From a virus (Duplodnaviria; Heunggongvirae; Uroviricota; Caudoviricetes): a DNA stretch of 64,000 nucleotides. Positions 20,501 to 56,690 of the stretch are shown piece after piece. Under the pieces are notes generated by a model. That model made no database searches. It was not told the DNA's origin and saw nothing but the letters and a program-made list of their open reading frames with translations. Location: positions 182,482 to 246,481 of the IMG/VR virus record IMGVR_UViG_3300028833_000054. One strand, written 5' to 3'. Within the stretch, counting starts at the first letter, position 1. The number at the start of each line of letters is the position of its first letter. The position numbers were made by a program, and so were the translations under genes.

Positions 20501-23500
20501 AGTAAACTCTACTCTTGATAAGACATACACAGGATATTTTATGGTCCTCGAAAAGAATGGTATCAATGCTTATACGAGAGTTATTGAAGAAAGTGATTCT
20601 CCTGCTTTGCTTGCAATAAGTAATGATATTATAACAGATGAAGTATATTCTGCTGCATCTTATATGTCTGCATTGTATAGTGCTGATAGTAATTTAGATT
20701 ATACAGATGTAAATTTAATATTGTATAACAATCTTGGAAATTATCCTATAATGCAAACATATGCATCTATGGTTAATGCAAATGCTATTCCTTACAGTGA
20801 TATCATTGAAGGATATACAGATGGAAAATATCGTTTGCTTATAGGTGAATATTCAGAACGTTCTTATATCTGGGCTTCACTTCTTGAACATATTGAACAA
20901 GATATTCCAAAGATTATAAATCATTATATTGATGATGCATCAAGTGAGATGATTATTATTCCTGATGATTCATCTTTCAATGATGATGAAGAAGAGTCAC
21001 AAGAAGATGAAGTTGTAATAGAAGAACCAACAGAAGAAGATGTTATCAATGACTGGTATTATATAGAACCACAACCTAGTGATTTTCTTGATGTTGTAGT
21101 AGATTTTGTTGAAAATCTTAAAACTGTAAATATAACAGTTCCTGCAAGTAAAATAGAAGAAGAGGAATTAGAAAATACTCTTGCTGATTTCAAAGAATCA
21201 TTAGAGAATATAATTGATTCTTCTGCAGAATTATATACTTATGAAGATGAAACTTTGTTTGATACTTCAACAGAAGTAATTGATTATATCAAATCTAAAG
21301 TAAATGATTTGTATTATACTATAGGAGATGTTTCTTCTAATTTGTATGTAGATACTAAATCATGTGTATGTTTGAACAATTATGAAACATATGATGTATT
21401 GATGAATATCTATCTCAAAAATATTTTGATAAATGAAGATGATACTGATACTTATGGAATAAAATACATATTAGGAGAACATAATGATTTGTATTCTGGT
21501 ACAGTAGGAGAACAAATATATGCAAAATATAAAGAAGATACAAATCTTGCTATGATGATGTCAAATGCAAAGATAACAGATGATATAATAAAGCAAGTTT
21601 GTTCATCTATTACAAATGCATTAAAAGTCAGAGGAAACAATATAGCAGAAATGCATAGAACATTTATAGAAGATTTTTATTCTAATTATGGAAATATAAC
21701 ATCTGCTTTTACCTCTGCTGTTGAAGTAGAATATTATGAAGAAGATGAGCTTACATCAGCATATTCAATTCTTTTTGAATCTGGTACAAGTAAAAATGAG
21801 TTGAGAAGCTCTGCACAAAAGATAATACTTCATACATTGGAAAGATTAGAAACTTATCCAGATGAAGATATTATACAATTGCAGTCATTTATTCCTCAAT
21901 ATTCTAAAATCTTGTTTGCAATATGTGTTTACATAGCTGATTGTACATTCTACAATATGCAAGATATTGTCGACTACAAAGATACTGCACTTAATTGTCT
22001 TTATGCTGAATATTTAGGAACTTATAGAGATGATGTGATTGTATTGTCATATGAAAATACATTAAAGGTTGCAGGAGGATTATACAATACATTCTTTACA
22101 GATAACGGAAAATTAGATGTAAATTCTGCATTGATTGAAGAATATGATATGACTAATGCAAGTGAATTTAAATTGTATGAAAAAATATTGTATAATTTAA
22201 CATCTCTTACTGCTAAGTTCTTGTCTGATAAATGGGTAACAAAGAACAATCCTAAGAATGAGTATGATGTCCTATATGCAGTTGCAGGAATTATTGCAAG
22301 TGAAGAAGAGGAAGAAACAGAAAATTCTGAATCTAATGAGGAGGAAACCTTTGTAGACAATCCTACTCCTGTATCTGAAAACGAAGAAGAGTCTGAAGAT
22401 GAAGAGACAGCATCATTGTACTACGTAAAGCCAAAAGGAAATGTATATGAAGGTCTATTATATACAAATCCTGTAAATACTGTTACTGCTTCAGGAAGAC
22501 CTATCAGCAAGGTAAACAACAAAAATGTTCTTCCTGATATTACAGCATTAATTCAAAAGCCTTACGTATCAGTATATATTCAGCCTACATGGAAAGCACA
22601 AGTAAGTATATCATTGATAACTCCTGAAAATGCTATTAAACTTGGATTTATACAAAATGAAGATGAATATGAAGAGATTGAAAACAAATATCTTTGTATA
22701 ATGTATTCTAATTCAGATTTCATGTGGCACTTCAGAAAAGGTGAAATGATTAAACTTATATTTGAATCTTTGACAAACAAAGAATATATTGGTCAATCAT
22801 CTTATGAAGTTGTTGGATATGATACTGAAGAACAAGTTGTAATAGTTAAAGGTGCTATCAATGCTGCATATGCTAGAAAAGAGAAACGTGAAGTTTGGGC
22901 AGAATTGCTTATCGATGACCCTAAATTCCCCCAAGCAGATATTGATAAATTGAAGGAATTTGCTAATGCTACAAATGTAGATGAAAGAAAGGTAGAACCA
23001 TTGATAAGAACATATAGATATATGATAGGAAATGATTCTCCTGCAGAAACTACTTACCGCTTGCCTATTAAGAAGTTAAATGGTACTTGGTATTATAAAG
23101 TATTCTATTTCGTCAATGGTATTCCTAGACCAATTGAAACTGTTAAAATTGACCCTCAAGAAAAGGTTAATATGTATATAAGTTATGCTCACAATGCATT
23201 TGTTGATTATACTATGACTGCTAACAAGTCAAAAGAAAACAGTAATGGAACTACTGATTTGTCAATTGATTACAACATATTGAACTGCAGAAAAATGCAA
23301 TTTATAGATGATACCTTTGTAGTATATGCTAAAGAATTTGACATCAATGAAGGCCTTGCAGCATGGATGAACAGTACAGTTCTTGATGAGCAAACAGTAG
23401 GAGAAATCTCAAAGAAGACTATTTACAAATATCGCTCTGAGAACGGATTTGTTCCTATCAAGATTTCTCCAGATTCTCCAAATGTTGCATTTACAGTAAA

Positions 23501-23726
23501 CTTTGAAGATATGGGTATTGATTTTGAAGAATCATATGTACAGTGGAAAGTTTACAGAAAACTTCCAACTAATAATGAAAGAGAATACATGTTTGAGTCA
23601 TTCAATAAAGTATTGTATTTAGATTATGTAGAGCCAGGAATATATGATATTGAGGCAAATGTATTTGATAAATACGGAAACACAGCAACAAAAGTATTCA
23701 AAGGTGCATATAAAGTAACAATTTAA
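17547..23726 (+). CDS. Giant acidic protein (2059 aa), function unknown; possible virion-associated or host-interaction protein
   Basis: Uninterrupted 6.2-kb ORF. D/E/Y/N/I-rich, with poly-acidic tracts (EEEEETENSESNEEE, DDEEESQEDE). No polymerase-type DxDGD or other catalytic motif seen. Confidence 0.6.
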   Translation: MSQFNYTNLHFFDKHGIELPITYSSNYIAEIINESGDNAVFYGLKDCSTGEFEFIKKKAGNRFSDKSEEVCHLTVGNTTYETTATVVKEDTPAFIGGEQTTVKYVNEISDIVVSDDIQAKIDALPFPTITLSSSLSLPPVSVDLVETQSIYVLCEYNNAFAKLAEVTGEDIIDFKNHYKILFYLDNRSQKDFRFFSVDNSELKWSDRAILNFNKGDFKVNIGFCGAEEGIYEQIMYVCILKDYKESDPTSGEIYPIGSIKLEAEAIGEDERYRTLFSNFGIPDPIHYQEVFANTSLDEGKMDYMKLNENSKKLFLSYSEIFSYIGSYKALMNAVNVLGYHDIFFKEWYKETGKNIVSKGYVTYDMSYKSDANANIIDNIPIEERISLKKLNWLSMVYRINKELLDEAEDQWGFPQIIEIYDYNNEEIITKLYSLKKWLEKYIIGLNCKIIDVSGEGIYFERYKLDTYGMYQQVFDWNNSNNLIPTVVTSDENGPLDYYLIDSSAYLNVDIGLYNAATIEDYKNYTLEQFCDGYIGTDNIYHQRMPDDEEAASVYVGRTFECLNRFEDYELKATSYGEDFLFGKEYLAKDSAGIRIHDNEIYFNPFELLEKEQQAAFTLLPFIQLEKANIRKKETNWNNSVKYRINPELTDDSLESYTIKNLETGDTYSSTDYIMLIPPTYSEMDDVVTITSFSGTEIEKDVYYVPEFQEDDSSLSTIVKHNQTIRTYGLRYSAINKMNMPLFSIAGYEVDGKSDFIDLQEEYYIEILDGKMLFNDVEHDRKIFLNFNFDKETNEQEVKISIIYTSDNFKIESYEDEDYIPAFIPGNEYSTFVDNYENDIDNAIIYDNVHSIKVMNTGEFTIDVYAKDLQNNIFAKNCENTVNVYLPNFSISTYTNSSNSGEEHNSIAEYISEEERTFLRDNYTDFCIYNNAYMINGFVKTINDSNKELSIQYPSYSYSMHNPKGGDYLHFMNISDRYYTDAVEFEVNSTLDKTYTGYFMVLEKNGINAYTRVIEESDSPALLAISNDIITDEVYSAASYMSALYSADSNLDYTDVNLILYNNLGNYPIMQTYASMVNANAIPYSDIIEGYTDGKYRLLIGEYSERSYIWASLLEHIEQDIPKIINHYIDDASSEMIIIPDDSSFNDDEEESQEDEVVIEEPTEEDVINDWYYIEPQPSDFLDVVVDFVENLKTVNITVPASKIEEEELENTLADFKESLENIIDSSAELYTYEDETLFDTSTEVIDYIKSKVNDLYYTIGDVSSNLYVDTKSCVCLNNYETYDVLMNIYLKNILINEDDTDTYGIKYILGEHNDLYSGTVGEQIYAKYKEDTNLAMMMSNAKITDDIIKQVCSSITNALKVRGNNIAEMHRTFIEDFYSNYGNITSAFTSAVEVEYYEEDELTSAYSILFESGTSKNELRSSAQKIILHTLERLETYPDEDIIQLQSFIPQYSKILFAICVYIADCTFYNMQDIVDYKDTALNCLYAEYLGTYRDDVIVLSYENTLKVAGGLYNTFFTDNGKLDVNSALIEEYDMTNASEFKLYEKILYNLTSLTAKFLSDKWVTKNNPKNEYDVLYAVAGIIASEEEEETENSESNEEETFVDNPTPVSENEEESEDEETASLYYVKPKGNVYEGLLYTNPVNTVTASGRPISKVNNKNVLPDITALIQKPYVSVYIQPTWKAQVSISLITPENAIKLGFIQNEDEYEEIENKYLCIMYSNSDFMWHFRKGEMIKLIFESLTNKEYIGQSSYEVVGYDTEEQVVIVKGAINAAYARKEKREVWAELLIDDPKFPQADIDKLKEFANATNVDERKVEPLIRTYRYMIGNDSPAETTYRLPIKKLNGTWYYKVFYFVNGIPRPIETVKIDPQEKVNMYISYAHNAFVDYTMTANKSKENSNGTTDLSIDYNILNCRKMQFIDDTFVVYAKEFDINEGLAAWMNSTVLDEQTVGEISKKTIYKYRSENGFVPIKISPDSPNVAFTVNFEDMGIDFEESYVQWKVYRKLPTNNEREYMFESFNKVLYLDYVEPGIYDIEANVFDKYGNTATKVFKGAYKVTI

Positions 23727-31096: not shown

Positions 31097-32881
31097 TTAG
31101 TCGTTGAGCGGCTGCTGCGGCTGTTCTTCAGCGGGCTGCTGTCCGTTCAGACCCTGGCCCATACCCGCACCGAGGGCGGCGCCAGCGAGAAGGCCGGCAG
31201 CATTCTTGAACCAGTTTCCACTCTGACCGGGGAGAGGAATGCTGTCCACAGCACCGATGGTAGGGGCGACAGTCTGAACCATGTTCTTCATGAAGTTGGC
31301 AGCGGTCTTACCATCTCCGGAGTCGTAGATGTTGATGTTGCCAAGGTTCATCTTCTCGAAGGCAGCGGCCTGAGCCTTAGCCATATCGGTGTAATTAATC
31401 TTTTCAACAATCTTGAACTGGATTGCAATTTCAGGGTGAGCCTCAGAGGCCTCAAGCATCTGCTTGTACGCTTCAGCTTCAGCGAGCAAGGACTGTTTCT
31501 TACCTTCAGCTTCAGCAAGCAACTTAGCCTGACTTGCCTTAGCCTCAGCCTCACCTCTCATGCGGGTAGCCTCAGCATCAGCCTTAGCTCTGGCAAGAGT
31601 AGCGGCAGAATAACCATCAGCTTCCTTCTTGAGCTTCTCCGCTTCAGCCTCAGCCTTAATGACGGTCTCCTTCTTGGCCATTTCAGCAGGAATAACCTTT
31701 TCCGCCTGGAGCTGCTGTTCAACCTTAGCAGCCTTGGCAGCTTCAACCTCACGTTCCTTTTCCTGACGCTTGATAGCAACCTGGGTCTCAGCATCAACCT
31801 GAGCTTCACCAGCAAGACGCTTAGCCTCTGCCTTCTTCACCTCAAGTTCAGCCTCAGACTGGGCAACTTCCTGCTTAGCAAGGTTAGTAGCAACCTGAGC
31901 CTTCTTGTCAGCATTGGCCTGACGGATGTCACGGTCAGCCTCAGCTTCAGCGACCTTTGCTTCCTTGTCAGCATTGGCCTTAGCCACATTGGTCTCCTTG
32001 TCAGCGTTGGCCTGAGCAACACTGGTCTCCTTCTCCGCGATAGCGCGAGCGACGTTGGTCTCCTTTTCAGCCTTAGCCTGCTCAACACCAGTGATACGTT
32101 CCTTTTCGGCCTGAGCAATAGCAAGGTCACGAGTCTTATTGGCATCAGCAACCTTAGACTTCTCTTCAGCATCTGCCTTAGCAATTGCAATCTCCTTCTC
32201 CTTGTTCTCACCAGCAATCCTGGACTTACCGAGTTTCTCCTGCTCAGCGATGCGGAACAGAGCTTCATTCTCCGTACGGGCAGCAGCTTCCTTACCCATA
32301 TTGACAATGATGTTGGCAGCATCCTGAATGTTGATGATGTTGATGTTCATCAGCTTCAGACCGTACTTCTTAAGTTCGTTGGTCACGTTCTCCGTAATCA
32401 TCTGCTGGAACTTCTCACGGTCAGTATTCATTTCAGAAATAGTCAACCGCGCGATGACGATACGCATCTGACCGTAAATAACCTCAGAGACAAGTTTTTC
32501 AATATCTCGCGGTTCCATTCCGAGCAAACGTTCTGCAGCAGTCTGCATCATAGCATCATCAGTATCAATTGCCACAGTAAGGTTGGTAGGAACATCAACA
32601 CGAATGTTCTCAGCAGAAAGAGCTCCCTTGAAATCAAGGTTCATCTGAATAGGCTGCAAGGACATAGTGGCATAACCCTGGACGATAGGCCACACAAAAG
32701 TACCCTTACCGTGAACAATCTTTGCAGAACGAATAGAACCTGCCTTTCCGGTCTTACCGTACTTGATAAGGATTTCATTAGGCTTACACTTCACATAATG
32801 TTTGATGACAACAAAGACGGAAGCGATGAGGACGGCGACGAGGACGCCAATCAAGATAGCAGCATTAACACTAATACTCAT
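31097..32881 (-). CDS. Flotillin-like SPFH/band-7 protein (YqiK/FloT-like) with long Ala/Glu/Lys coiled-coil and Gly-rich C-terminus
   Basis: N-terminal TM helix, SPFH domain (KPNEILIKYGKTGKAG...IVQGYATMSLQPIQ), then ~300 aa of AEAEA/KAEAE heptad-like repeats including five 12-aa KANADKETNVA repeats. Very high GC (about 55-60%) compared with the rest of the window. Confidence 0.75.
   Translation of the reverse strand: MSISVNAAILIGVLVAVLIASVFVVIKHYVKCKPNEILIKYGKTGKAGSIRSAKIVHGKGTFVWPIVQGYATMSLQPIQMNLDFKGALSAENIRVDVPTNLTVAIDTDDAMMQTAAERLLGMEPRDIEKLVSEVIYGQMRIVIARLTISEMNTDREKFQQMITENVTNELKKYGLKLMNINIINIQDAANIIVNMGKEAAARTENEALFRIAEQEKLGKSRIAGENKEKEIAIAKADAEEKSKVADANKTRDLAIAQAEKERITGVEQAKAEKETNVARAIAEKETSVAQANADKETNVAKANADKEAKVAEAEADRDIRQANADKKAQVATNLAKQEVAQSEAELEVKKAEAKRLAGEAQVDAETQVAIKRQEKEREVEAAKAAKVEQQLQAEKVIPAEMAKKETVIKAEAEAEKLKKEADGYSAATLARAKADAEATRMRGEAEAKASQAKLLAEAEGKKQSLLAEAEAYKQMLEASEAHPEIAIQFKIVEKINYTDMAKAQAAAFEKMNLGNINIYDSGDGKTAANFMKNMVQTVAPTIGAVDSIPLPGQSGNWFKNAAGLLAGAALGAGMGQGLNGQQPAEEQPQQPLND
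31890..32085 (-). repeat. Imperfect tandem DNA repeats (~36-39 bp unit, ~5 copies) encoding the KANADKETNVA coiled-coil repeats
   Basis: Recurring cttgtcagcattggcct / ggtctccttgtcagcgttggcctgagc units. Confidence 0.6.
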
Positions 32882-32917: not shown

Positions 32918-33544
32918 TTAAGCTTTGGAAGTACTTTCCGAGTCAGGAGTAGAACAAGGAGTACAGTAAATAGTAGTATTAACTTCAGATGTACTGTGAA
33001 CCCTTGAAATGTATGCATAGTCACCAGTCTTAAAATCGTCTGCAATATATCCGGTGTCAGGATGTGCAATAATTTCATTGATACGACCGTCCTGCTCAAT
33101 CTGCAGAATGACAATACCATTGCCTACAGTATACACCTGTCCATGCCGTCCAACAAGATCAGTCGGTTTTTCATGTACAATTGTTCCTTCAAGTTTCATA
33201 CATGCTCGGTAAGCAAGTAGCAGCAAGAAGAACATAACAATGCCGACAAAAACAGCAAGAACAGCATTCCAACCTTCAAGGCCAAACAACGCCCAAGAAC
33301 AAGAAAAACCTACACCAAAATTGATAAATCCCTTAAGAGAGAAAACATCAGATACTGAAAATCCGTATCCATCAACATTGGCATCAGCATCAGGAGTGCC
33401 ATCACCATCAAAATCAATGTCTCCATCGGCATCAACATCTCCGCCAGCAAGGGCAAGAATGACCTTAACGACAAAGAAAAGAAGGAAAAACAAAGCAACC
33501 CAACCACCAGTAGGATCTTTGATAATACTAATAAGAGGAATCAT
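32918..33544 (-). CDS. NfeD-like membrane protein (YqiJ-type partner of flotillin)
   Basis: Multi-TM N-terminal half plus C-terminal OB-fold beta-barrel (GRHGQVYTVGNGIVILQIEQDGRINEIIAHPD). Sits immediately upstream of the SPFH gene, as in bacterial nfeD-flotillin operons. Elevated GC. Confidence 0.6.
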   Translation of the reverse strand: MIPLISIIKDPTGGWVALFFLLFFVVKVILALAGGDVDADGDIDFDGDGTPDADANVDGYGFSVSDVFSLKGFINFGVGFSCSWALFGLEGWNAVLAVFVGIVMFFLLLLAYRACMKLEGTIVHEKPTDLVGRHGQVYTVGNGIVILQIEQDGRINEIIAHPDTGYIADDFKTGDYAYISRVHSTSEVNTTIYCTPCSTPDSESTSKA

Positions 33545-33607
33545 ATAATTATTACTTTAAAATTTACAATATAAATATATGTAATTTAGTTGATACTAAA
33601 AAATATT

Positions 33608-33811
33608 TTAGGAAATTATATTCTTATTATCATTTCCTTCTTTGAGTCCGTGTGCAAATCCATATTCATATACTTCATCAAGAACCTCAGTAATAGTTTT
33701 TGTTGAATACATTATATCTGAATATGCTTCTCTAATAATTTCTTTTTTTGTTTTCATTTTATGCTTCTGGAATTTCATCTGAAAATGGAGCAGGAGACGG
33801 TTTGATTGCAA
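33608..33811 (-). CDS. Hypothetical small protein
   Basis: 67-aa ORF. Confidence 0.3.
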   Translation of the reverse strand: MQSNRLLLHFQMKFQKHKMKTKKEIIREAYSDIMYSTKTITEVLDEVYEYGFAHGLKEGNDNKNIIS

Positions 33812-34064
33812 CTAAACCGCTATCTGCTTCAAGTTGATTTTTGTATTCTTTTGCTTTGTTCAAATACCAGTCTTCCTTCTTAAGGTCTTGTTCAATAGGA
33901 GTTTCTGGCTTCTCGCCAAGACGCAACCTATATTTAAATGCAGTCATTTCACACCAAAGAGCTGTTGCTGCAGTTCCAAAAACTCTTCTCAAAATCTCAA
34001 TTGCCTCAATATCATACTTGTTGTAATGAGACGGATGGTTCACCATTTCGTAATCTTTTGCCAT
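33759..34064 (-). CDS. Hypothetical protein
   Basis: 101-aa ORF. Overlaps the previous ORF by 53 nt. Confidence 0.35.
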   Translation of the reverse strand: MAKDYEMVNHPSHYNKYDIEAIEILRRVFGTAATALWCEMTAFKYRLRLGEKPETPIEQDLKKEDWYLNKAKEYKNQLEADSGLVAIKPSPAPFSDEIPEA

Positions 34065-34348
34065 ATTCTATAAAATATATTCTTTTTCTTTTTATTGATA
34101 TCTTTAATAATACTTCTTACTACTTCTCCGTAGCACTGACTAGGAGATAAAGGATCTGAGAAATAGAAATCATCGCCATAATATGCTTTAATCAGTTCTA
34201 CTGAAATTTTATTGTATATAGCCAATTGATTTCTATAAGCATGATATTCATATTCTTCTATAAGCATTAATTTGTCACCACGCTCTGCTTGCTCAAATTC
34301 TATATTATCAAACCACTTACCAAATATATCATAATCACCATCACCCAT
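34040..34348 (-). CDS. Hypothetical protein
   Basis: 102-aa ORF. Confidence 0.35.
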   Translation of the reverse strand: MGDGDYDIFGKWFDNIEFEQAERGDKLMLIEEYEYHAYRNQLAIYNKISVELIKAYYGDDFYFSDPLSPSQCYGEVVRSIIKDINKKKKNIFYRIWQKITKW

Positions 34349-34349
34349 A

Positions 34350-35153
34350 TCACTTAATCATATTGAGATATTCATCTTCAGTGAACTTAGAAATTCCTAA
34401 CTCATTGGCTTTCTTAATCTTAGCAGCACCTGCTTTGTCACCAACAATAAGAAATGTCAATCCTCTGGATATTCCAGATGCATATGTACCACCATTTGCA
34501 ATAACAGATTCTTTGATTTCATCTCTAGAGAAGTTCTTTAAAGTACCTGTTGCAAGAATAGTCATTCCGAACAATTTGTTACCAGTTGTCATAGGCTTAT
34601 CAAACTTTGTATTAAAATATTTGTAAACATTCTGAAGTTCTTCCTTTTCAGATGCCATGTAATTATGTACATTATTTCCTGCAACTTCACCAAGAACACC
34701 AACAACATCATCTAATGATGCCTTTTCTATTTCTTCAATAGAACCAAATCTCTCAAGAAGTTTCTTAGCATTTACTTTTCCAATACCTGCAATACCAAGA
34801 GACATCAAAACATTTTCTGCCTTTGCTTTGTTTCTTGAATTCATCAATTCATCAACAATATTTCTTGCAACAACTGGTCCACAACCTGCATGCTGCAATT
34901 GTTCTGCAGTAAGATTATATAAATCCCACCAGTTTCTGATATTAAGTGCAGGAACAATCTTTCGGAGAGTCTTTTCAGACAATCCATCAATATTCATACA
35001 CTCCTTAGTTACAAAATAATTTAATTTTGCAATTCTTCTTTCTTCACAATCAGGATTGCTACAATAAAGATGAGCACCATCTTCAAGGAGTCTTACTATC
35101 GGAGCTCCACAAAACGGACAAACAGTCGGTTCTTCAATTTTAATAGCTTTCAT
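34350..35153 (-). CDS. ligA: NAD-dependent DNA ligase, C-terminal fragment (Zn-finger, HhH and BRCT domains)
   Basis: CPFCGAPIVRLLEDGAHLYCSNPDC (Cys4 Zn finger), HhH region, and BRCT GMTILATGTLKNFSRDEIKESVIANGGTYASGISRGLTFLIVGDKAGAAKIKKANELGISKFTEDEYLNMI. The start codon overlaps the stop of the inserted GT2 gene (TAATG). Confidence 0.8.
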   Translation of the reverse strand: MKAIKIEEPTVCPFCGAPIVRLLEDGAHLYCSNPDCEERRIAKLNYFVTKECMNIDGLSEKTLRKIVPALNIRNWWDLYNLTAEQLQHAGCGPVVARNIVDELMNSRNKAKAENVLMSLGIAGIGKVNAKKLLERFGSIEEIEKASLDDVVGVLGEVAGNNVHNYMASEKEELQNVYKYFNTKFDKPMTTGNKLFGMTILATGTLKNFSRDEIKESVIANGGTYASGISRGLTFLIVGDKAGAAKIKKANELGISKFTEDEYLNMIK

Positions 35154-36406
35154 TAATTAGCAGGAGTATATATGTTACACAATGTTTTTAATTTTTCCTT
35201 TTCAAAAGGTTTACTCATATCAGTGCATTGATATTCTTCATTCCACAAAGGGTCATCAGAACCAAGTTCAAGAATTCTATTATGAATTTGTTCATCATAT
35301 TTTTTTCTCAAAAGAGAATTGGTTCTTTGTATTTCATCAAACCTATGTGATTGAGCAGTAGTTCCATCCCTTCTTGTTGTATTGTTTCCTTCATGTTGAA
35401 TATACAAAACTTTATCAACAATAGAAATTTTTCCATACAGAAATGTGCGAATCAACAAATCCATATCATCAAGAACTGATAACTCTATATTATGACCGCC
35501 AATCTTATGATAAAATTCTTTTTTCCAACATCTAACATGATTAGGAAGAGCATGAATTCCTCTGACAGAAACTGCATTAACAAGTGCAGTCAATGCAATA
35601 TTTCGTTCTTGGCCCATTACAAATACTTTTCTGTATTCGCCAAGACCATAAGCAAAATTCTCAGAATAATAAATTTCATGTCCATTTACTTCTTCCATTG
35701 CATGAGAATAAACAAAATCACTGTCAGGATATGCAGCAAAAGTATTATTCAGTTGTTCAAGACAATCTGGAAGAAGTTCATCATCATGGTCTACTTCAAC
35801 AAGATAATCTCCATCACAAGCAGAAGCAATCATATGCTTGTTGAAACCAATATTTCCATGATTAGTGATATTCTTGACTACTACAATTCTTGGGTCATGG
35901 AAATGTTCAATCATTTCAGAAGTAGCAGGAGAAGTACTATCATCAAGAATATACCAATTCCAATTGTGATAAGTTTGATTTAGCAAAGACTCATACAGTC
36001 TTACAAACATCTTTTTTGGAGTATTGAATGTACAAGTGAAAATTGAAAACAACTTTACTTCTTGTGGACGTTCTCTATTAATATTATTAAGAAATACTCC
36101 AATAATTGCTCTTGCTAAAGTATCAGGTTCAAAAGTATCTTTGTGAATCCATTTCTTTCTGAACTCAAATGACATTTCATTAAGAGGTTTGAAATCAATA
36201 TTTTCACCTACTGTAATAATACAATCAAATCCTTTTGCTTTATTGAGTTCAGACAAAAGATTGTTAGTATTTTTAACTATATGAAAATCAAACCCTTTCT
36301 CACCATAATACCACTTATACTCTGGGTCAGTTGAAGTAGTGACCAAAGAGTAATCATGTTCATCGGCGAGAGGGTCAATGATAAATGCTGAAATTCTATT
36401 CTTCAT
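35153..36406 (-). CDS. GT2-family (GT-A fold) glycosyltransferase inserted between the two halves of ligA
   Basis: FSIFTCTFNTPKKMFVRLYESLLNQTYHNWNWYILDDSTSPAT (classic GT2 N-terminus) and DxD motif VEVDHDDELLPD. Extra ~130-aa N-terminal domain of unknown function. Both ends overlap the ligA fragments by 1 nt. Confidence 0.7.
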   Translation of the reverse strand: MKNRISAFIIDPLADEHDYSLVTTSTDPEYKWYYGEKGFDFHIVKNTNNLLSELNKAKGFDCIITVGENIDFKPLNEMSFEFRKKWIHKDTFEPDTLARAIIGVFLNNINRERPQEVKLFSIFTCTFNTPKKMFVRLYESLLNQTYHNWNWYILDDSTSPATSEMIEHFHDPRIVVVKNITNHGNIGFNKHMIASACDGDYLVEVDHDDELLPDCLEQLNNTFAAYPDSDFVYSHAMEEVNGHEIYYSENFAYGLGEYRKVFVMGQERNIALTALVNAVSVRGIHALPNHVRCWKKEFYHKIGGHNIELSVLDDMDLLIRTFLYGKISIVDKVLYIQHEGNNTTRRDGTTAQSHRFDEIQRTNSLLRKKYDEQIHNRILELGSDDPLWNEEYQCTDMSKPFEKEKLKTLCNIYTPAN

Positions 36407-37680
36407 TATTCTAATTCTATATTTTCAGTAAGGCAGCGTTCATAGTCAACTCCAGTGACTTTCGGAATGACAGCTCCTCCTTTCTCTACAAAGACGTAAG
36501 CACCTATCTGTAGATTCAATTGATTGATATAATCAATGTTGTTCAAAGAGGCTTTAGATACAGTAGAACCGTCAATCTCAACAGGTTCAAGGATTCCTAC
36601 TGGAGTAAGCTTGCCAGTTCTACCCATCTGCCACTCAACACTAAGAAGCTTAGTAGAAGCAGATTCTTGTTTGAACTTGAAAGCCTTGGCCCATTTAGGT
36701 ACCTTCTGTGTATAACCCATCTGAAGTTGTTTCTCAATTGAGTCAAATTTGATCACACAACCGTCCATGCAGTAATCCTGCTTCTTCAAAAATCTATCTT
36801 CAAATTCTTTGATGAATGTAAGAACAGTATGTTGGTCAAGCGCAAGCCAATAATTAGGTGCATTGAAACCAAAAATATTTGCTACGGTAAGAGCCTTTGC
36901 TTGGCTGTCAAGATAAAGTTTATTGAATAAATCGTCATCATCAACAAATACTGCAAACGGCATAAACAAAAGCTTACGACTAGCTGTAACTTTCGGGTCA
37001 AGTTGTTTAATAGAGCCGGCAGCACAATTTCTCTCATTCGCAAACAAAGGAAGACCTTGCTCTTCACGTTCTTTATTGATTCTTTTGAATTCTGCTTTTG
37101 ACATCAGAATCTCACCGCGGATTTCAACATACTTAGGAACATAAATCTCCCAAAAATGATAGTCATTGACTACATCTGGATATATCATTCCATTTTCGTT
37201 TTTGTTTCCGTTAATTTTTAACTTCAAAGGAATAGACCTGATAGTCTTTACATTCTCAAGAATATTGTCACCTTTAAGACCAGAACCTCTAGTAGAAGCA
37301 GAAACAAGAACACCATCAACATAGATAAGAGAACAAGAAACTCCATCATATTTAGGCTCAACTATCCATGTATTGTATCCGTCATCTACAGATTCCATCC
37401 AAGACTTAAGCTCTTCCATATCATAGCAATTTGCAATAGAGCCCATGATACGTTTTCTTTCAACCGTAGTGAAGCCATCTTGCAAATCAGAACCTACACG
37501 TTGAGTCGGAGAATAAGGAAGAATGTAACCAGTCTCAGCCTCGAGTTCTTCCAACTGTTTCATTTTCATATCAAACATATAGTCTGACATGGTAGGTTCA
37601 CACTTTACATAATAATCATAATTTGCCTGGTTGAGTTCTTCAACAAGGTCTTCAATCAAACCATTTTTACTAATATCCAT
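36406..37680 (-). CDS. ligA: NAD-dependent DNA ligase, N-terminal fragment (Ia, adenylation/NTase and OB domains)
   Basis: SPTQRVG, adenylation motif EPKYDGVSCSLIY (KxDG), TRGSG, NERNCAAGS, AFKFK, MGRTGKLTPVGILEPV, collinear with E. coli LigA residues 1-~405. Ends exactly at the OB/Zn-finger boundary. Confidence 0.8.
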   Translation of the reverse strand: MDISKNGLIEDLVEELNQANYDYYVKCEPTMSDYMFDMKMKQLEELEAETGYILPYSPTQRVGSDLQDGFTTVERKRIMGSIANCYDMEELKSWMESVDDGYNTWIVEPKYDGVSCSLIYVDGVLVSASTRGSGLKGDNILENVKTIRSIPLKLKINGNKNENGMIYPDVVNDYHFWEIYVPKYVEIRGEILMSKAEFKRINKEREEQGLPLFANERNCAAGSIKQLDPKVTASRKLLFMPFAVFVDDDDLFNKLYLDSQAKALTVANIFGFNAPNYWLALDQHTVLTFIKEFEDRFLKKQDYCMDGCVIKFDSIEKQLQMGYTQKVPKWAKAFKFKQESASTKLLSVEWQMGRTGKLTPVGILEPVEIDGSTVSKASLNNIDYINQLNLQIGAYVFVEKGGAVIPKVTGVDYERCLTENIELE

Positions 37681-37710
37681 AACAAATATTGTATATTAGA
37701 ATATTATTAG

Positions 37711-38454
37711 TTATTTTACAAAAGTTCCGTCTTTGACAATCCAGCCACCTTCATCTTCAAACATCTCATAAAGGTCTTTCTTTGTATTCCAGTCTTCTGC
37801 CGTTTTCAGATATTCAGGAATTTTGTCGCAACATTCAAACACATTGAAACGATAATCTTTTGTCTTAATTACATAAGCATTCTTGACAGTTTTCTGAAGA
37901 GACTCATCTTCACAATATTTCTTAAATTCCTGTTCAATTGTATCATATTTGTCGAGTCTCGTCTTAAAACAAACATGATTTCCACCGTAATCTTCAATAA
38001 AGAAAATATAATGGTCTACAGTAGCAGAAACATTTTCATCAAGTTTAAGTTTATCTTTGAATACATCTGAAATCTTCAAATCAAATCCTTTTCTTTCAAG
38101 AATAACATTGATAGTATTCATCTTAGACATAAATACTCTATCATGTGCAATCTCGTGTGAACATCTTTTATAGCGTTCTTCAGAAACATGAGAGTCTTGC
38201 CACAAATGAATCATCTCATGAATAAGAATTTCCTGAATCTGTCGCTCAGTAAATACAAAATACCTGCAGAAAGCAATATCATGAATATTACCGTTCTTCG
38301 TTGGCTTATCACGATGACGAGAAAATCCTGCAGCATAAGCAAGACGATGAAGCATGAAATTTATTTTGTTTGCTCTTGGAAGAGAATTATTAAAGAGCAA
38401 AGCATTAAATAATTCATAATTTGATTTGATATTTTCAAGGTCTTTCTTATTCAT
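37711..38454 (-). CDS. HExxH zinc-metallopeptidase-like protein (SprT/WLM-like)
   Basis: ILIHEMIHLWQDSH ... CSHEIAH motif arrangement. 247 aa. Confidence 0.4.
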   Translation of the reverse strand: MNKKDLENIKSNYELFNALLFNNSLPRANKINFMLHRLAYAAGFSRHRDKPTKNGNIHDIAFCRYFVFTERQIQEILIHEMIHLWQDSHVSEERYKRCSHEIAHDRVFMSKMNTINVILERKGFDLKISDVFKDKLKLDENVSATVDHYIFFIEDYGGNHVCFKTRLDKYDTIEQEFKKYCEDESLQKTVKNAYVIKTKDYRFNVFECCDKIPEYLKTAEDWNTKKDLYEMFEDEGGWIVKDGTFVK

Positions 38455-39109
38455 AATTGTAAATATACTTAAATTTTGTTAAATCTATTTGTACATGATA
38501 TTCTTTTTCCTTTGTGGTACTAAACACTTCAGAAGAAACCAATACTGTGTCTTTACCAGAATAAACTAAAAATTTATTAGCATCAGAAATATATTGATAG
38601 TAAGAACAATAATCTTTAACAAATGGAAGAAAATAATCTCTCCATCTTTCAAGAAGTTCATCTGCTGCGCTTCTTGATATTTCTGCAAAAACTTTTTGAA
38701 AATTAGAAGAGATATATATTTTTTCTAAAAATACAAATGGATATACGGGATTAAAAATAAAACTATTGAAATCTTTTAAATTTCTCATATATGTCGGACT
38801 GGGTGCATACGGATATATCAAGCTTTTTTGAAATTTTACTGCGTATGATGGATTTTTACTAGCATAATCTTGTTGCAGTGTCATTGGCTTTCTTTCATAA
38901 ATACCAAATTCACCATAAGCAAAACCTTGTCCTTGTGTTCTAAGTATATTTTTTATATAATCATAATATTCTTCCTTTGTATAAATAACAGTATTGTTTG
39001 AAGAAAATCTCTTACCTAAGAAAATATCTTCAAACAATATCTTATCTTCTTCAGAAGCAATATTTTCAATATAATTTTTAAATATATCTACTAAATTCAG
39101 TACTTCCAT
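38447..39109 (-). CDS. Hypothetical protein
   Basis: 220-aa ORF. Confidence 0.4.
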   Translation of the reverse strand: MEVLNLVDIFKNYIENIASEEDKILFEDIFLGKRFSSNNTVIYTKEEYYDYIKNILRTQGQGFAYGEFGIYERKPMTLQQDYASKNPSYAVKFQKSLIYPYAPSPTYMRNLKDFNSFIFNPVYPFVFLEKIYISSNFQKVFAEISRSAADELLERWRDYFLPFVKDYCSYYQYISDANKFLVYSGKDTVLVSSEVFSTTKEKEYHVQIDLTKFKYIYNYE

Positions 39110-39200
39110 ATACTTTTGGTTTAAACAAATATATGAAAAATCTCAGACAATAAAAAATTTTATTGCCTGAGAACAAAGAATATATAGAGATAGAAACCTT

Positions 39201-39491: not shown

Positions 39492-40112
39492 TTATCGTCT
39501 TCCTCCACGGTGTTGATTTCCATTAGGTCTGTGATTTTCACTAGGTCTTGAACCAGGTTGTGGCTTTGGTGGAGGTGGTGTAGGACGATACCTTGGAAGA
39601 GGCATTGGTCTTGGACGATAATATAGTCTTGTATGATTATATGGAATAATTGTTCTTTCATAATAAAAATCATAAATTCTTCTATAAAGAACATGATTTC
39701 TAATTACTCCTGTATCTTTATCAACATACTTGTAAATACCTGTAATATCAATTACACCATTTAAATACATTTGATATAACTCAGGAAAATGATTCTTCAA
39801 TACTTCCATCATTTCAGAATGATTTCTGTAATAGTACTTCATAAAATGATACTTGACTTTGTAATCAACTGTACCATCTTCAAGTACAACTTCTTTCATT
39901 GAGTCAACATCCAAAACTCCTTCCATATAATATGTATAAAGTTGAGGATAATGATTTGCAAGAACATAAGAAATCTCGTCCATCTCTTTGACTCTTCTTT
40001 GATTTGCATAAGATGCTGTTGCACAAGATATGAAAATCATTGATGAAATCAATACGAGTAATAAACTAAATTTTTTCATAGTTAACGATCTTTGTAATTT
40101 TTCTCTAGCCAA
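39492..40112 (-). CDS. Secreted/lipoprotein with two ~45-aa internal repeats and a Pro-rich basic C-terminal tail
   Basis: Signal peptide MKKFSLLLVLISSMIFISCATA (the likely start is the internal Met at ~40079). Repeats LKNHFPELYQMY / LANHYPQLYTYYM. C-terminal PRPMPLPRYRPTPPPPKPQPGSRP. Confidence 0.45.
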   Translation of the reverse strand: MAREKLQRSLTMKKFSLLLVLISSMIFISCATASYANQRRVKEMDEISYVLANHYPQLYTYYMEGVLDVDSMKEVVLEDGTVDYKVKYHFMKYYYRNHSEMMEVLKNHFPELYQMYLNGVIDITGIYKYVDKDTGVIRNHVLYRRIYDFYYERTIIPYNHTRLYYRPRPMPLPRYRPTPPPPKPQPGSRPSENHRPNGNQHRGGRR

Positions 40113-41185
40113 GTTTGATATGTTCCAGAAATAACATTGTTCAACCAGTCTTCATTGTCTAAATACCATTTGACAGTTTTTTCAATTCCGGTGTCAAATG
40201 TTTCTTCTGGCTTCCAACCAAGTTCATTCTGCAATTTACTTGAGTCAATAGCATATCTCAAATCATGGCCTTTTCTATCTGTTACAAATTGTATGCTAGA
40301 CTCATAAGTTCTAACCCACAACGGCTCAGGATTTGTAATATATTTTTTATTGCTTCTAAGTTGTTTTTCATGTGCAAATACTTTAATAATCTTCTTGATT
40401 ATATCAATATTGCTCATTTCGTGGTTTCCTCCAACATTGTAAGTTTCACCAGACTTTCCATTGTGAAAAATAACATCAATTGCTGCTGCATGGTCTTCAA
40501 CATATAACCAATCTCTTACATTTTCACCTGTTCCATAAACTGGTATTTCTTCATGATTCTTCAACTTGTTTATTACAAGCGGAATAAGTTTTTCTGGAAA
40601 TTGATTTGGTCCGTAATTGTTACTGCAATTGCTAATTGTAACATTCAATCCATAAGTATCATGATAAGCTTTTACAATATGGTCTGAACTTGCTTTACTT
40701 GCAGAATACGGAGAATGAGGATTATATGGAGTAGTTTCAGTAAACTTATTCTCTGGATTCATATCAAGTGCACCATAAACTTCATCAGTTGAAACATGAT
40801 GAAATCTATGAATTGCAAGATTATCTTTCCACTTGTTAAGTGCAACTTCTAACAATCTGTATGTTCCAACAATATTAGTATTGATAAACTCACCCGGGTC
40901 AAGAATACTTCTGTCAACGTGACTTTCTGCAGCAAGATTGATTATATCCGTAACATTGTATAAATCAAATGCGTTTTCAACATCTGCTTTATTTGCAATA
41001 TCACCACAGAAAAACTTGTAATTCTTACTTTCTTCAATATCTTTCAAGTTTTCAAGGTTTCCCGCATAAGTAAGTTTGTCAAAATTAATAATCAAATAAT
41101 TAGGATAGTTTTTAACGAATCTCCTAACAACGTGACTACCGATGAAGCCTGCTCCACCGGTAATCATTATAACTTTCTCAAACAT
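40082..41185 (-). CDS. rmlB: dTDP-glucose 4,6-dehydratase
   Basis: ITGGAGFIGSHVVRRFVKNYPNYLIINFDKLTYAGNLENL N-terminus. SDR YxxxK (YSASKASSDH). Full-length colinearity with RfbB. Confidence 0.85.
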   Translation of the reverse strand: MFEKVIMITGGAGFIGSHVVRRFVKNYPNYLIINFDKLTYAGNLENLKDIEESKNYKFFCGDIANKADVENAFDLYNVTDIINLAAESHVDRSILDPGEFINTNIVGTYRLLEVALNKWKDNLAIHRFHHVSTDEVYGALDMNPENKFTETTPYNPHSPYSASKASSDHIVKAYHDTYGLNVTISNCSNNYGPNQFPEKLIPLVINKLKNHEEIPVYGTGENVRDWLYVEDHAAAIDVIFHNGKSGETYNVGGNHEMSNIDIIKKIIKVFAHEKQLRSNKKYITNPEPLWVRTYESSIQFVTDRKGHDLRYAIDSSKLQNELGWKPEETFDTGIEKTVKWYLDNEDWLNNVISGTYQTWLEKNYKDR

Positions 41186-42107
41186 AAAATCTAAATACTT
41201 TTTCTACTACTCTATCAACAGAAGTTGCCCACTGTGGAATAAAAGCATTATAAATGTTAATAACTTTGTCTTTTGATAACAAACCAAACTTAGGTCTCTC
41301 GACATTGGTAGGATAGTCTGATGTCTTACAAGGTTTGATTACTCCTCCAAAGAACATTGACCTCTTAGCAGCTTCTCTCTTATATGCAGCGAGAACCTCA
41401 CAAGCAAAATCATACCAAGTTGTATAACCTAAATTTGAAAAATGATAAATTCCTGATGTAAATGGTACAGTATTAGATGAATCACCAACAATGACATCAG
41501 TAACAATGAATTTTGCCAAATCACCAGCATAAGTAGGAGTTCCGAACTGGTCATCAACAACATTCATATCCTTGTTGTCCTTCATATTCTGAAGAGTAGT
41601 CAATACGAAATTCTTTCCGTATTCAGAATACAACCAAGATGTTCTGATAATCATATACTCAAGGTCTCCGCGTTTTGCAATATTCTGAATCTCTGTCTCA
41701 CCAAGAAGTTTTGTTCTTCCATAAGTGTTGAGAGGACCAGTAGGAGAATCTTCAGTCTTCAAATCAGGACTTCCGTCAAATACATAATCAGTTGAAATAT
41801 GGATAAGACGAATTTTTGACTTCTCGCAAGCTTCAGCAAGAAGCTTAGGACCATATCCATTTGCAAGGATAGCTGCATCTTCATTGTCAGTACAACCACC
41901 AACATTTGTATATGCAGCACAATTGATTACATAATCATAATCGCCGTCTTCGACATATTTCTTTACATGAGTAGAATCCGAAATATTCATTTCAGGCAAA
42001 TCTACTGCATCATATTCAAAAGAATCTCCGTAATTCTTTATAGCATCAATAATACACTTGCCAAGTTGACCATTGGCACCAGTGATAAGAATTTTAGTTT
42101 TCTGCAT
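41178..42107 (-). CDS. rmlD: dTDP-4-dehydrorhamnose reductase
   Basis: KILITGANGQLGKCI Rossmann start and YGRTKLLGE (YxxxK). About 300 aa. Confidence 0.8.
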   Translation of the reverse strand: MQKTKILITGANGQLGKCIIDAIKNYGDSFEYDAVDLPEMNISDSTHVKKYVEDGDYDYVINCAAYTNVGGCTDNEDAAILANGYGPKLLAEACEKSKIRLIHISTDYVFDGSPDLKTEDSPTGPLNTYGRTKLLGETEIQNIAKRGDLEYMIIRTSWLYSEYGKNFVLTTLQNMKDNKDMNVVDDQFGTPTYAGDLAKFIVTDVIVGDSSNTVPFTSGIYHFSNLGYTTWYDFACEVLAAYKREAAKRSMFFGGVIKPCKTSDYPTNVERPKFGLLSKDKVINIYNAFIPQWATSVDRVVEKVFRFYV

Positions 42108-42675
42108 AATAATCTATATTATAATCAAATAAATTGTTTTCATCTATATCTCCCCAAGTAGGGTGGCAGCAATCCTTCTTAGATAAAATAATAGCTCCAT
42201 CATATACCTTTCCCCAATCAATTCCCACAGAATTCCAGTCAAGTGCTGCTTCAGATTCTTTATCATAAGGATTATCACACTTGTATTGGAAGATTGTATC
42301 ATCTTTCAATGCAATAAATCCGTGGGCAAATCCACGAGGAATGAAAAATTGTTTATGATTGTCTTCAGTAAGAAATACACCGACAAATTTTCCAAAGGTA
42401 GGAGAACCTTTTCTAATATCTACTGCAACATCATAGACTGCACCTTTTACTACTCTAACGAGTTTTGACTGTGCAAATGGTGGTTTCTGCCAGTGAAGAC
42501 CTCTGATAACTCCAGCTCTTGATTTACTTTCATTATCTTGAACGAAAGTTGTGTTGCAAACTAATTCTCTAAACTGTTTGTCATTAAACGATTCAAAAAA
42601 ATGACCTCTGTCATCTTTAAAAATATCTGGGTCAATCACATAGACACCAGGAATTTCTTGTTCTGTTACTTTCAT
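42094..42675 (-). CDS. rmlC: dTDP-4-dehydrorhamnose 3,5-epimerase
   Basis: Cupin signature FVQDNESKSRAGVIRGLHWQ...KLVRVVKGAVYDVAVDIRKGSPTFGKF...PRGFAHGF. Confidence 0.8.
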   Translation of the reverse strand: MKVTEQEIPGVYVIDPDIFKDDRGHFFESFNDKQFRELVCNTTFVQDNESKSRAGVIRGLHWQKPPFAQSKLVRVVKGAVYDVAVDIRKGSPTFGKFVGVFLTEDNHKQFFIPRGFAHGFIALKDDTIFQYKCDNPYDKESEAALDWNSVGIDWGKVYDGAIILSKKDCCHPTWGDIDENNLFDYNIDYYAEN

Positions 42676-45247: not shown

Positions 45248-45832
45248 TTAAATTATTCCCATTTTTTGAAGAGTAACCTCTGTAAATACTCTAAATTCAA
45301 TTCCTCTTTCTTCACACCAAGCAACTGCTGCTTTCCACTTTGCATTATTCTGCAAATAAGTTCTTGCAGCTTCATTAAATCTTTTCTGCTCTTGTAATTT
45401 TGCACCAACAGGAGGAGGAACAGGTCTCTCTGTTTGATGTTTCGGTTTTATTTCAATGAACATCTTTTTTGTCTTTGTTCCATCTTCATCATCATCTGCT
45501 CTAATCTCAAGATAAAAATCTGGATAATAATTGTTTATTGGCCAATTTGCTGGGTCAAGAGGAGAAGAATTATATTTTCTGCAAGCATCTAAGTCAACAG
45601 CTGCAGGATTCTTATATTGAATTGAAGCAGTCTCACAGCCCCACTCAATAACAGCAGGATTGTCATCACACCAACGAGCAAATGCCATTTCCCAAGCTGA
45701 ACGGTAAATAACTTCACCTCCAACTACTTTACTTGGATTTTTTGGAACATAGACACCTTGATGCGGTTTTCCCGATTTCTCCTCATTCATTATGTTTGGT
45801 CTATGAGATTTTTTATATGCTAAGGTACTCAT
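45248..45832 (-). CDS. Head completion protein (T4 gp4-like, nuclease fold)
   Basis: GVYVPKNPSKVVGGEVIYRSAWEMAF...VIEWGCETASIQYKNP and C-terminal AKWKAAVAWCEERGIEFRVFTE parallel gp4 (KWVPKNPQKY..., AKWEAAERYANKLGVKF). PD-(D/E)xK-like YPDFYLEI...FIEIKP. Confidence 0.55.
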   Translation of the reverse strand: MSTLAYKKSHRPNIMNEEKSGKPHQGVYVPKNPSKVVGGEVIYRSAWEMAFARWCDDNPAVIEWGCETASIQYKNPAAVDLDACRKYNSSPLDPANWPINNYYPDFYLEIRADDDEDGTKTKKMFIEIKPKHQTERPVPPPVGAKLQEQKRFNEAARTYLQNNAKWKAAVAWCEERGIEFRVFTEVTLQKMGII

Positions 45833-53124: not shown

Positions 53125-53591
53125 TCTCGTAAATGAATTATTCTTTGGTTTGAACTTCCTCTAAAAGGAAGACTCAAATCCCGTTGAGCATATCTATATG
53201 GACCATCAACAAGTATATCACATTTTTTAAGTATTGCTTTCTTCAACGGGTGTTTAATAAGATTTTCATATACATCTCCACTATAAACCCAAATATCTTT
53301 ATCAGGAAATTTTGTTTTTATTTCACAAATAAGAAAGTACAACTCAATTAAACTCTTTAAATTCTGGTCTAAAGGGTCTCCTCCTGACAGTGTAATTCCT
53401 TTGATATAAGATTTATCAAGTTTGGTAAAAAGGTCCTTCTTAATTTCTCTAAGAGCCTTCCCTTGTTTGTAATTCCATGTTTCTGGATTATGACAACCTT
53501 TACAATGATGAGAACAACCTGCTACCCAGAGCGTTACCCTAAATCCTTCTCCATTATTTACATCTGGCGATGTTATATTCAAATATCTCAT
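53109..53591 (-). CDS. nrdG: Anaerobic ribonucleotide reductase activating protein (radical SAM)
   Basis: VAGCSHHCKGCHNPETW (Cx3Cx2C) plus glycine-rich SAM motif GITLSGGDPL. 160 aa. Confidence 0.7.
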   Translation of the reverse strand: MRYLNITSPDVNNGEGFRVTLWVAGCSHHCKGCHNPETWNYKQGKALREIKKDLFTKLDKSYIKGITLSGGDPLDQNLKSLIELYFLICEIKTKFPDKDIWVYSGDVYENLIKHPLKKAILKKCDILVDGPYRYAQRDLSLPFRGSSNQRIIHLREWENQ

Positions 53592-56381: not shown

Positions 56382-56690
56382 CTATTCTACATCCTTACAC
56401 TCATCAGGATTAGTCGATACACTGTTATGAGTTCTTTTTTCTCTTCTAATTTTAAGAGATTTTAAGTGCATATGTTTTTGAAATTTTGGTTCCCAAGAAT
56501 TTTTCAGAAGTTGTTCAATTATAGTTCTTGAAATATTAAAATTATCTTTACAATACTTATATAATTTCGTATGACCTAAACAAGTATAAACTAAAATGTC
56601 ATTATAATATACAAAATATTCATAAGGACAATCTCTGTCCATCATTTTGTTATAAGCATCTTCTGATAATTTTTTTTCCTTTATTTGCAA
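56382..56690 (-). CDS. Hypothetical ORF inside the intron (possible detached/frameshifted C-terminal DNA-binding part of the homing endonuclease)
   Basis: 102-aa ORF overlapping the 3' end of the GIY-YIG ORF by 41 nt in another frame. Confidence 0.3.
   Translation of the reverse strand: MQIKEKKLSEDAYNKMMDRDCPYEYFVYYNDILVYTCLGHTKLYKYCKDNFNISRTIIEQLLKNSWEPKFQKHMHLKSLKIRREKRTHNSVSTNPDECKDVE

Follow-up and report, generated by a model that had tools for sequence, protein, structure and literature searches.

Two-subunit NAD+-dependent DNA ligases have been recognized in T5-like phages. Phage T5 is annotated with subunits A and B of the enzyme, encoded by ligA and ligB (PMC3632103). In T5-like genomes, the gene for a subunit A of ~324 aa is followed by a spacer of ~200 nt or by two small open reading frames (ORFs), and then by the gene for a subunit B of ~250 aa. 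An enzyme of this type has been solved (PDB 9hu3 and 9i5i), with a 339-aa chain A named "DNA ligase (NAD(+))" and a 248-aa "DNA ligase subunit B"; chain A matches subunit A of the T5-like phage Shivani with E = 3e-106. In T4-like phages, several genes are split by mobile elements, as in gene 60/39, nrdA in Aeh1, and the split gene 43. Here, we analyze a 64,000-nucleotide stretch of DNA from a virus of the class Caudoviricetes (positions 182,482 to 246,481 of IMG/VR record IMGVR_UViG_3300028833_000054; hereafter, the window), in which a NAD+-dependent DNA ligase is encoded in two parts, ligN and ligC, with a family 2 glycosyltransferase (GT2) gene, here called the GT, between them. We consider it likely that ligN and ligC form a stable two-subunit ligase of T4-like jumbo phages, and that the gap in the interdomain linker is a cargo slot containing a GT that was captured once.

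ORF calling placed the three genes on the minus strand in a block spanning 34350-37680 (Table 1). A preliminary annotation made from the DNA letters alone (the sequence-only reading) had reported a GT2 gene between two ligase halves on a shared strand that it did not specify, a 1-nt TAATG overlap at both junctions, and a division of ligA at the boundary between the OB domain and the zinc finger into pieces of 424 and 267 aa. The coding strand, Pfam matches, and alignments agree with each of these points. Start and stop codons are clean for each gene of the block, and the reading frames of ligN, the GT, and ligC are all different (0, 2, and 1, respectively).

Table 1. Positions of the ligase locus and of other features of the window discussed in the text.
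Feature	Position	Strand	Details
ligN, N-terminal subunit of NAD+-dependent DNA ligase	36406-37680	minus	424 aa; domain Ia (weak match), adenylation/nucleotidyltransferase (NTase), OB
GT2 glycosyltransferase (the GT)	35153-36406	minus	417 aa, 1254 bp; Glycos_transf_2
ligC, C-terminal ligase subunit	34350-35153	minus	267 aa; Cys4 Zn finger, HhH, BRCT
Junction 1, TAATG	36404-36408	minus	ligN stop and GT start share 1 nt
Junction 2, TAATG	35151-35155	minus	GT stop and ligC start share 1 nt
SprT-like gene	37711-38454	minus	directly upstream of ligN; Pfam on near-identical and related loci
RmlB-like dehydratase, RmlD, and RmlC genes	40082-42675	minus	dTDP-6-deoxyhexose/rhamnose; 3.7 kb upstream
T4 gp42-type dCMP hydroxymethylase	9736-10437	minus	PDB 1b49, E = 2.4e-71, vs ~1e-7 for thymidylate synthases
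Thymidylate-kinase-like ATPase	10434-11057	minus	adjoins dCMP hydroxymethylase
dUTPase/dCTP-deaminase-like gene	5243-5785	minus	immediately upstream of polB; Pfam run with the L138 counterpart
nrdD	54555-56273	minus	
GT2 gene between nrdD and nrdG	53595-54551	minus	318 aa; weak GtrB-like PHROG matches
nrdG activase	53109-53591	minus	

Both ligase pieces retain characteristic domains and residues of the enzyme. In Pfam, ligN matches DNA_ligase_aden (PF01653, E = 3.3e-63) and DNA_ligase_OB (PF03120, E = 7.9e-28, residues 343-415), while ligC matches DNA_ligase_ZBD (PF03119, E = 1.1e-6), HHH_2 (PF12826, E = 5.8e-11), and BRCT (PF00533, E = 1.3e-8). The match of the window's ligN to domain Ia (PF22745) is weak (E = 0.0094, below the curated cutoff); in the related locus L001, whose ligN is 96% identical, this family appears with no such flag, and the TIGR00575 alignment to ligN begins at residue 12. 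In the NCBIfam LigA model PRK07956, ligN aligns to positions 1-389 (E = 3.9e-116) and ligC to positions 394-664 (E = 1.3e-54). The adenylation lysine of ligN is K110, within the sequence KYDG (KxDG motif), and K110, Y111, D112, and G113 are invariant across 16 homologs. All four zinc-binding cysteines of ligC (C12, C15, C31, and C36) are intact.

The position of the break is well defined. In P0151, an intact relative of 709 aa, residues 7-410 are matched by ligN and residues 412-707 by ligC, so that the window's break corresponds to residues 410-412. Likewise, ligC aligns to residues 404-668 of Escherichia coli LigA (PDB 2owo), and residue 404, at the start of the Zn finger, pairs with ligC residue 8. 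Multiple alignment places the break in the short OB/Zn linker, with essentially no residues gained or lost.

The sequence-only reading also proposed that the three cistrons are translationally coupled, which is probable for the window itself. The TAATG of junction 1 is the same in L001, L013, and L017, and differs in more distant relatives, where the genes at these junctions overlap by more or are separated by +1 to +63 nt. Gene spacing is tight in all loci (-43 to +63 nt). Because the exact TAATG pair is confined to the window and its nearest relatives, coupling is not a conserved requirement. A terminator scan identified no terminator-like sites inside the three-gene block and a terminator-like hairpin upstream of it at 39141-39172; in a promoter scan, promoter-like sites were no more frequent than the shuffled expectation. 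We infer that the block is co-transcribed. Across relatives, the surrounding gene order (SprT-like, ligase, DUF3310, ResIII helicase, a small gene, and a sigma-like gene) is conserved.

The closest described counterpart, the ligase of T5-like phages (Demerecviridae), is broken in the same OB/Zn linker: chain A of 9hu3 ends at approximately residue 397-402 of P0151 and chain B begins at approximately residue 412-416. As in the window, the T5-like subunit genes neighbour each other on one strand of a replication gene block, and the T5-like Vibrio phage D232 has small ORFs between them. Unlike that of the window, however, the T5-type gap contains no glycosyltransferase, only a 200-nt spacer or two small hypothetical ORFs. 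The T5-type subunits (L011 and L012) are also distant in sequence, with 27-31% identity to the window's halves, and subunit A aligns only from approximately ligN residue 103-110, appearing to lack domain Ia. In contrast, P0151, which is encoded on a 320-kb contig of a jumbo phage with a T4-type portal, is 62% identical over ligN and has the same domain order. It occupies the same syntenic position as the window ligase, followed by the ResIII helicase and sigma-like genes, but is a single polypeptide with no gene in the linker.

The window's halves are thus nearer to intact jumbo-phage ligases (62%) than to T5-type subunits (27-31%), the first of which apparently lacks domain Ia. For these reasons, the T5-type and window fissions look independent at the level of protein sequence, and we rejected a shared fission event. 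The arrangement is unusual in a narrower sense than the sequence-only reading had it: division at this linker is standard in T5-like phages, whereas a GT in the gap appears undescribed. Our literature search found no paper on PDB 9hu3/9i5i, on a split ligase with an embedded GT, or on the present rumen phage group. The two-subunit NAD+ ligase as such is already known; apparently undescribed are its separate origin by fission in T4-like jumbo phages, the GT conserved within the gap, and the changing cargo around it.

To place the split in a wider context, we surveyed ligN homologs. IMG/VR yielded four ligN relatives, and most of the context came from metagenome contigs and exact-protein look-ups. 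Among the best 120 homologs, all those with at least 63% identity to ligN are 411-433 aa long, i.e., split, and those with less than 63% identity are a mix of split (386-422 aa) and full-length (666-736 aa) proteins. A neighbour-joining tree of ligN places the window in a 47-member clade made up wholly of split proteins, while a separate clade of 50 sequences contains only full-length proteins. Split and intact ligases interleave within the window's own ligase family. Support for the deep nodes of this tree is weak (31-49%), and the L008-type clade is set apart from the window clade, so that the GT-bearing splits may have more than one ligase-side origin. Uninterrupted ligA genes, which the sequence-only reading suggested seeking in related phages, do exist (e.g., P0151), but none lies inside the 47-sequence clade. 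The order ligN, GT, and ligC, with any further cargo after ligN and in some cases DUF5662 after the GT, was found in L001, L013, L017, L039, L055, L037, L057, L007, L021, L008, and L027, and is kept down to ~58-62% ligN identity.

We then compared the window with five relatives by the Nei-Gojobori method. The ratio of nonsynonymous to synonymous substitution rates (dN/dS) was 0.06-0.14 for ligN, 0.05-0.18 for the GT, and 0.14-0.23 for ligC. All three genes are under purifying selection, and neither ligase half is decaying. The sequence-only reading had allowed that the insertion may be recent; because neither half decays, we reject both a recent insertion and a pseudogene, and the persistence of the gene order to ~58-62% ligN identity likewise speaks against a recent event. 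Interruption of a gene that is normally single could by itself suggest an incipient pseudogene, with the ligase inactivated by a recent disruptive insertion, or an error of assembly or sequencing. However, many independent contigs, drawn from different samples and collections, show this architecture, dN/dS is 0.05-0.23 in both halves, the catalytic residues are intact, and each piece starts and stops cleanly. An explanation of this kind is extremely improbable, being refuted by the homolog survey, the ligN tree, and dN/dS.

Comparison of related loci revealed that the contents of the gap vary. The ligase is intact, with no gap, in L010, L014-16, L022-26, L028-33, L035, and L038. In L009, a 102-nt spacer without a gene separates ligN and ligC; the ligN proteins of 386-392 aa that cluster with L009 (P0221-P0236) probably also represent an empty split. 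The GT is the only gene in the gap in the window, L001, L013, L017, L008, L027, and L057. It is accompanied by DUF5662 in L007 and L021, by a 97-aa ORF and DUF5662 in L037, and by a 207-aa Cys-rich ORF in L039. The gap of L055 is the largest, with eight small ORFs (one MGS-like) and then the GT, amounting to nine genes in 4.9 kb. L018 carries the same series of small ORFs as L055 up to the contig end, and L019 and L020 carry the first four before their contigs end. GT-bearing gaps hold one to nine genes, among which the GT is always the final gene before ligC, or the penultimate one when DUF5662 follows, and additional cargo genes collect between ligN and the GT. The cargo at L055 11263-14920, L018 2894-6603, and L007 8509-9051 includes the MGS-like protein and DUF5662. 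The cargo of relatives further includes a Cys-rich, zinc-ribbon-like protein of ~208 aa, which in L039 is the sole extra one, and a pair of related small proteins of ~90 and ~122 aa.

The GT itself belongs to a well-conserved family (445 matches, 61% mean column identity). Residues 121-257 match Glycos_transf_2 (PF00535, E = 1.6e-19), and the protein comprises a conserved N-terminal alpha/beta domain (approximately residues 1-115), a GT-A catalytic domain, and a C-terminal helical region. D155-D156 and D206-H207-D208-D209 (DxD motif) are invariant. The AlphaFold2 model has a mean predicted local distance difference test (pLDDT) score of 90.1, and its nearest solved structures are the GT-A enzymes K4CP, SpsA, TarP, the TDP-rhamnose-using RmlT, and WrtF (Foldseek probability 1.00, E down to 1.9e-13). 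The top viral match is a 1443-aa multi-domain glycosyltransferase, with a template modeling (TM) score of 0.76, and NCBIfam gives weak matches to WcaA, TuaG, and EpsE. The GT thus shares its GT-A fold and DxD motif with GT2/GT-A glycan transferases such as the chondroitin polymerase K4CP, SpsA, TarP, RmlT, and WcaA-like proteins. It is only 13-23% identical to K4CP, SpsA, TarP, and RmlT, however, and differs from the listed transferases in its conserved ~115-aa N-terminal domain and its C-terminal helical extension. The protein is soluble, without a membrane segment, and acidic, with an isoelectric point (pI) of 5.5. We discarded hydrophobicity and pI as guides to its substrate; ligN is acidic as well.

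In the GT tree, all GTs known from ligase gaps (23/23) fall in one clade of 62 sequences with a bootstrap value of 97. This clade includes the GTs of the L008-type lineage, which is set apart in the ligN tree. The GTs known from non-ligase loci all fall outside it, in other, more basal clades, and these relatives lie in glycan clusters with GT92, GT8, DUF4422, UDP-glucose dehydrogenase, and epimerases. Because the ligase-embedded GTs form a single clade, the simplest reading of the tree is one capture of a GT from the phage's own glycan-transferase family, followed by inheritance. Most likely, the GT would act as an independent soluble GT-A enzyme of the phage's glycosylation programme, with no part in the ligase. 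The Rml genes of the window (Table 1) possibly provide its dTDP-6-deoxyhexose donor.

How the ligase first came to be split is a separate matter. The sequence-only reading attributed the split to the inserted GT2 gene, which does lie between the halves; the causal claim goes too far. L009 is split without an insert, and with up to nine genes in the gaps of relatives the gap behaves as a cargo slot, so the GT is no more than a possible cause. The ligase may instead have been split before any cargo arrived, by a mobile or recombining element acting in the OB/Zn linker, with the GT a secondary occupant and the split junction spreading between related phages by homologous recombination. We regard this account as possible, if somewhat unlikely. 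In its favour, L009 is split with only its 102-nt spacer, and its DNA (6001-8124) is ~90% identical to that of the intact L030 (6962-8977) on both flanks, while a junction-centred patch of ~360 nt is too divergent for blastn alignment. Over the wider junction region of L009 (residues ~316-433), protein identity falls to 56-72%; residues 356-413 are 72-75% identical to the window vs 56-58% to L030. The ligN of L009 ends in VDYERxLxxNIEL and a stop, like the window clade, whereas the intact relatives of L030 read DYERHILENxDFE and continue, and the final ~35 nt of L009 ligN are 92-94% identical to window-clade loci. Because this mosaic resembles the window clade at the junction, recombination seems able to carry the split junction from one related phage to another, at least as judged from these alignments. 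A similar signal is present between the window and L001 (4727-8063), where amino-acid identity falls from 96% in ligN to 88% in the GT and 75% in ligC and the synonymous substitution rate (dS) shifts along the locus (0.30, 0.72, and 0.92); window and L013 are 94-98% identical throughout. The stepwise divergence from L001 points to mosaicism with breakpoints near the gene junctions, that is, to recombination within the locus. Against an element as the original cause, none of the gap versions examined contained an endonuclease, a transposase, or an intron, and none was flanked by repeats. Among the relatives' cargo ORFs there was no homing endonuclease or transposase, only MGS-like proteins, DUF5662, or ORFs without a match, and a repeat search detected no repeats bracketing the GT beyond short chance-level matches. 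Because the L009 spacer holds no recognisable remnant of a GT or other cargo, an insert that was lost and one that was never present look alike there, and the empty split may be either original or a product of loss. The sequence-only reading's analogy with homing-endonuclease cassettes fails on the same point: like the T4-like split genes, the ligase is an essential DNA-metabolism enzyme made as two polypeptides, but neither the window's insert nor any variant of it contains an endonuclease, intron, or intein, and the cargo is a conserved enzyme plus variable small genes. The sole homing-endonuclease-like gene seen in the window, encoding a 186-aa NUMOD3 protein (56650-57210, minus strand; PHROG "homing endonuclease," E = 1e-23), lies outside the ligase gap, just upstream of nrdD. 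Removal of the intervening DNA as a group I or II intron or as an intein, giving a single-chain ligase, has next to no chance of being correct, and we found no evidence in its favour. No significant Rfam family was detected on either strand of 33500-38500, where matches were noise only, in keeping with the lack of intron or intein signatures that the sequence-only reading had noted by eye at the junctions. The three different frames, the dozens of stop codons per frame across the region, and the stops at both junctions exclude an intein, and the GT is a conserved enzyme, complete in itself and able to fold independently. Known intron and intein classes are accordingly refuted.

Another question is whether the GT acts on DNA, given its genomic setting. 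The window encodes a T4 gp42-type dCMP hydroxymethylase, an adjoining thymidylate-kinase-like ATPase, and a dUTPase/dCTP-deaminase-like protein (Table 1), which by their sequence matches appear to be the T-even set for replacing cytosine with 5-hydroxymethylcytosine (hmC). Because of the T4-type hydroxymethylase and its companion genes, the phage DNA is very probably hmC-substituted. T-even phages glycosylate hmC. On this basis, the embedded GT might be a DNA-modifying enzyme that glycosylates hmC or extends its sugar in newly replicated phage DNA, with its position inside the ligase operon maintained by selection because it would have to be produced along with the replication and repair proteins. 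Several observations bear in this direction and count against our preferred interpretation of the GT as unconnected cargo. Besides the T-even gene set, the GT keeps its place beside ligC clade-wide, over ~40% divergence, despite turnover of the other cargo, and functional coupling might explain this. A second GT2 gene lies between nrdD and nrdG, so that the window holds two cases of a glycosyltransferase between two coupled DNA-metabolism genes. A DNA substrate would also accord with the solubility of the GT and with the nearby Rml sugar-nucleotide pathway. Nevertheless, we consider a role in DNA modification unlikely. The reported phage hmC-DNA transferases (T4 alpha-GT and beta-GT, and RB69 ORF003c) have a GT-B fold (PMC6024577), and because the window enzyme is instead GT-A, nearest to polysaccharide and teichoic-acid transferases, its fold weighs against a DNA role. 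The top 50 PDB or viral fold matches contain no DNA glycosyltransferase, the best viral structural match is the 1443-aa multi-domain enzyme, the sister clades lie in large glycan clusters outside DNA-metabolism operons, and the protein is acidic. Still more doubtful is the specific proposal of a new GT-A-class DNA glycosyltransferase on hmC that is coupled to the ligase by co-translation or a three-protein assembly, with the fission retained for this coupling. If true, coupling of the GT to the ligase would link nick sealing to the sugar modification of new DNA.

We therefore favour a two-subunit ligase with a cargo slot, which is directly supported by the anatomy of the locus, its conservation, the purifying selection on its genes, the single origin of the embedded GT, and the failure to find splicing elements. 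In this model, the flexible OB/Zn-finger linker would be the point of fission. The ligN protein would supply NAD+ binding, the adenylated lysine, and the OB domain, and ligC would supply the DNA-clamping Zn finger, HhH, and BRCT modules. The two would reassemble non-covalently around nicked DNA, like the T5-type A/B ligase. A working two-subunit enzyme, which the sequence-only reading had raised as one option, is the option favoured by purifying selection on both halves; assembly of the heterodimer and nick sealing are predicted from this conservation and by analogy with the solved T5-type enzyme. The gap made by fission would have become a cargo slot within a co-transcribed replication operon, into which a GT2 gene from the phage's own glycan-transferase family would have been captured once and then inherited, while small genes upstream of it come and go.

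If this model is correct, natural fission of NAD+ ligases recurs at the OB/Zn-finger linker: at least two fissions have occurred there, one in T5-like phages and one in the present T4-like jumbo lineage, with a possible third in the L009 lineage. The locus would also provide a second, phylogenetically independent two-subunit LigA, with at least a weak domain Ia match, for comparison with the solved T5-type enzyme. Following fission, an intergenic gap may serve as a long-lived cargo slot in an essential operon, with one conserved gene and others that change. For annotation, our comparisons suggest that "truncated" LigA proteins in gut and rumen phage bins may be functional subunits rather than pseudogenes. 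With a dCMP hydroxymethylase and many GT-A transferases in DNA-metabolism operons, the lineage is a candidate source of new DNA sugar modifications.

The source of the window is a T4-like jumbo phage, probably with a Bacteroidota host, as indicated by its T4-type genes, its large relatives, and the similarity of its polymerase to those of Lak phages. The window encodes a T4-type portal, a RecA/UvsX-like protein, NrdD, NrdG, a sigma-like protein, and a ResIII helicase, as well as at least five further GT2 or GT92-type genes. Its relatives are contigs of 150-320 kb from apparent rumen and gut metagenomes, and the nearest annotated polymerase relatives are those of Prevotella Lak megaphages, at 38% identity. 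The 4-kb ligase region had no blastn match in the phage collection, which accordingly contains no annotated close relative.

The polymerase gene of the window also looks split. The family-B polymerase ORF (3744-5228, minus strand) encodes 494 aa, carries an exonuclease domain and positions 24-146 of 453 of the polymerase domain, and spans a 502-position PHROG "DNA polymerase" family end to end. A search for the C-terminal half of polB failed to locate it both in the window and in L138, a 9.9-kb contig whose N-terminal half of polB is 100% identical and which continues into terminase and baseplate genes. The four ORFs after polB in the window (105-3787, minus strand; 355, 297, 290, and 283 aa) had no Pfam match, and the 355-aa ORF had no PHROG or PDB match either.

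Other genes of the window stand out for size or composition. A 2059-aa ORF (17547-23726) without a Pfam match lies on the plus strand, opposite to nearly all other genes of the window, and a 1261-aa ORF (60158-63943, minus strand) likewise has no Pfam match. A Band_7/flotillin-like protein of 594 aa (31097-32881, minus strand), kept in L001 and L055, has a long, repetitive middle rich in Ala, Glu, and Lys; the GC content of its gene is 50-56%, vs ~32% around it. Between the portal gene and the GT block, a 194-aa protein (45248-45832, minus strand) combines a TnsA-like endonuclease N-terminal match in Pfam with a "head closure" match in PHROG, and the same gene is present in L009, L055, and L056.

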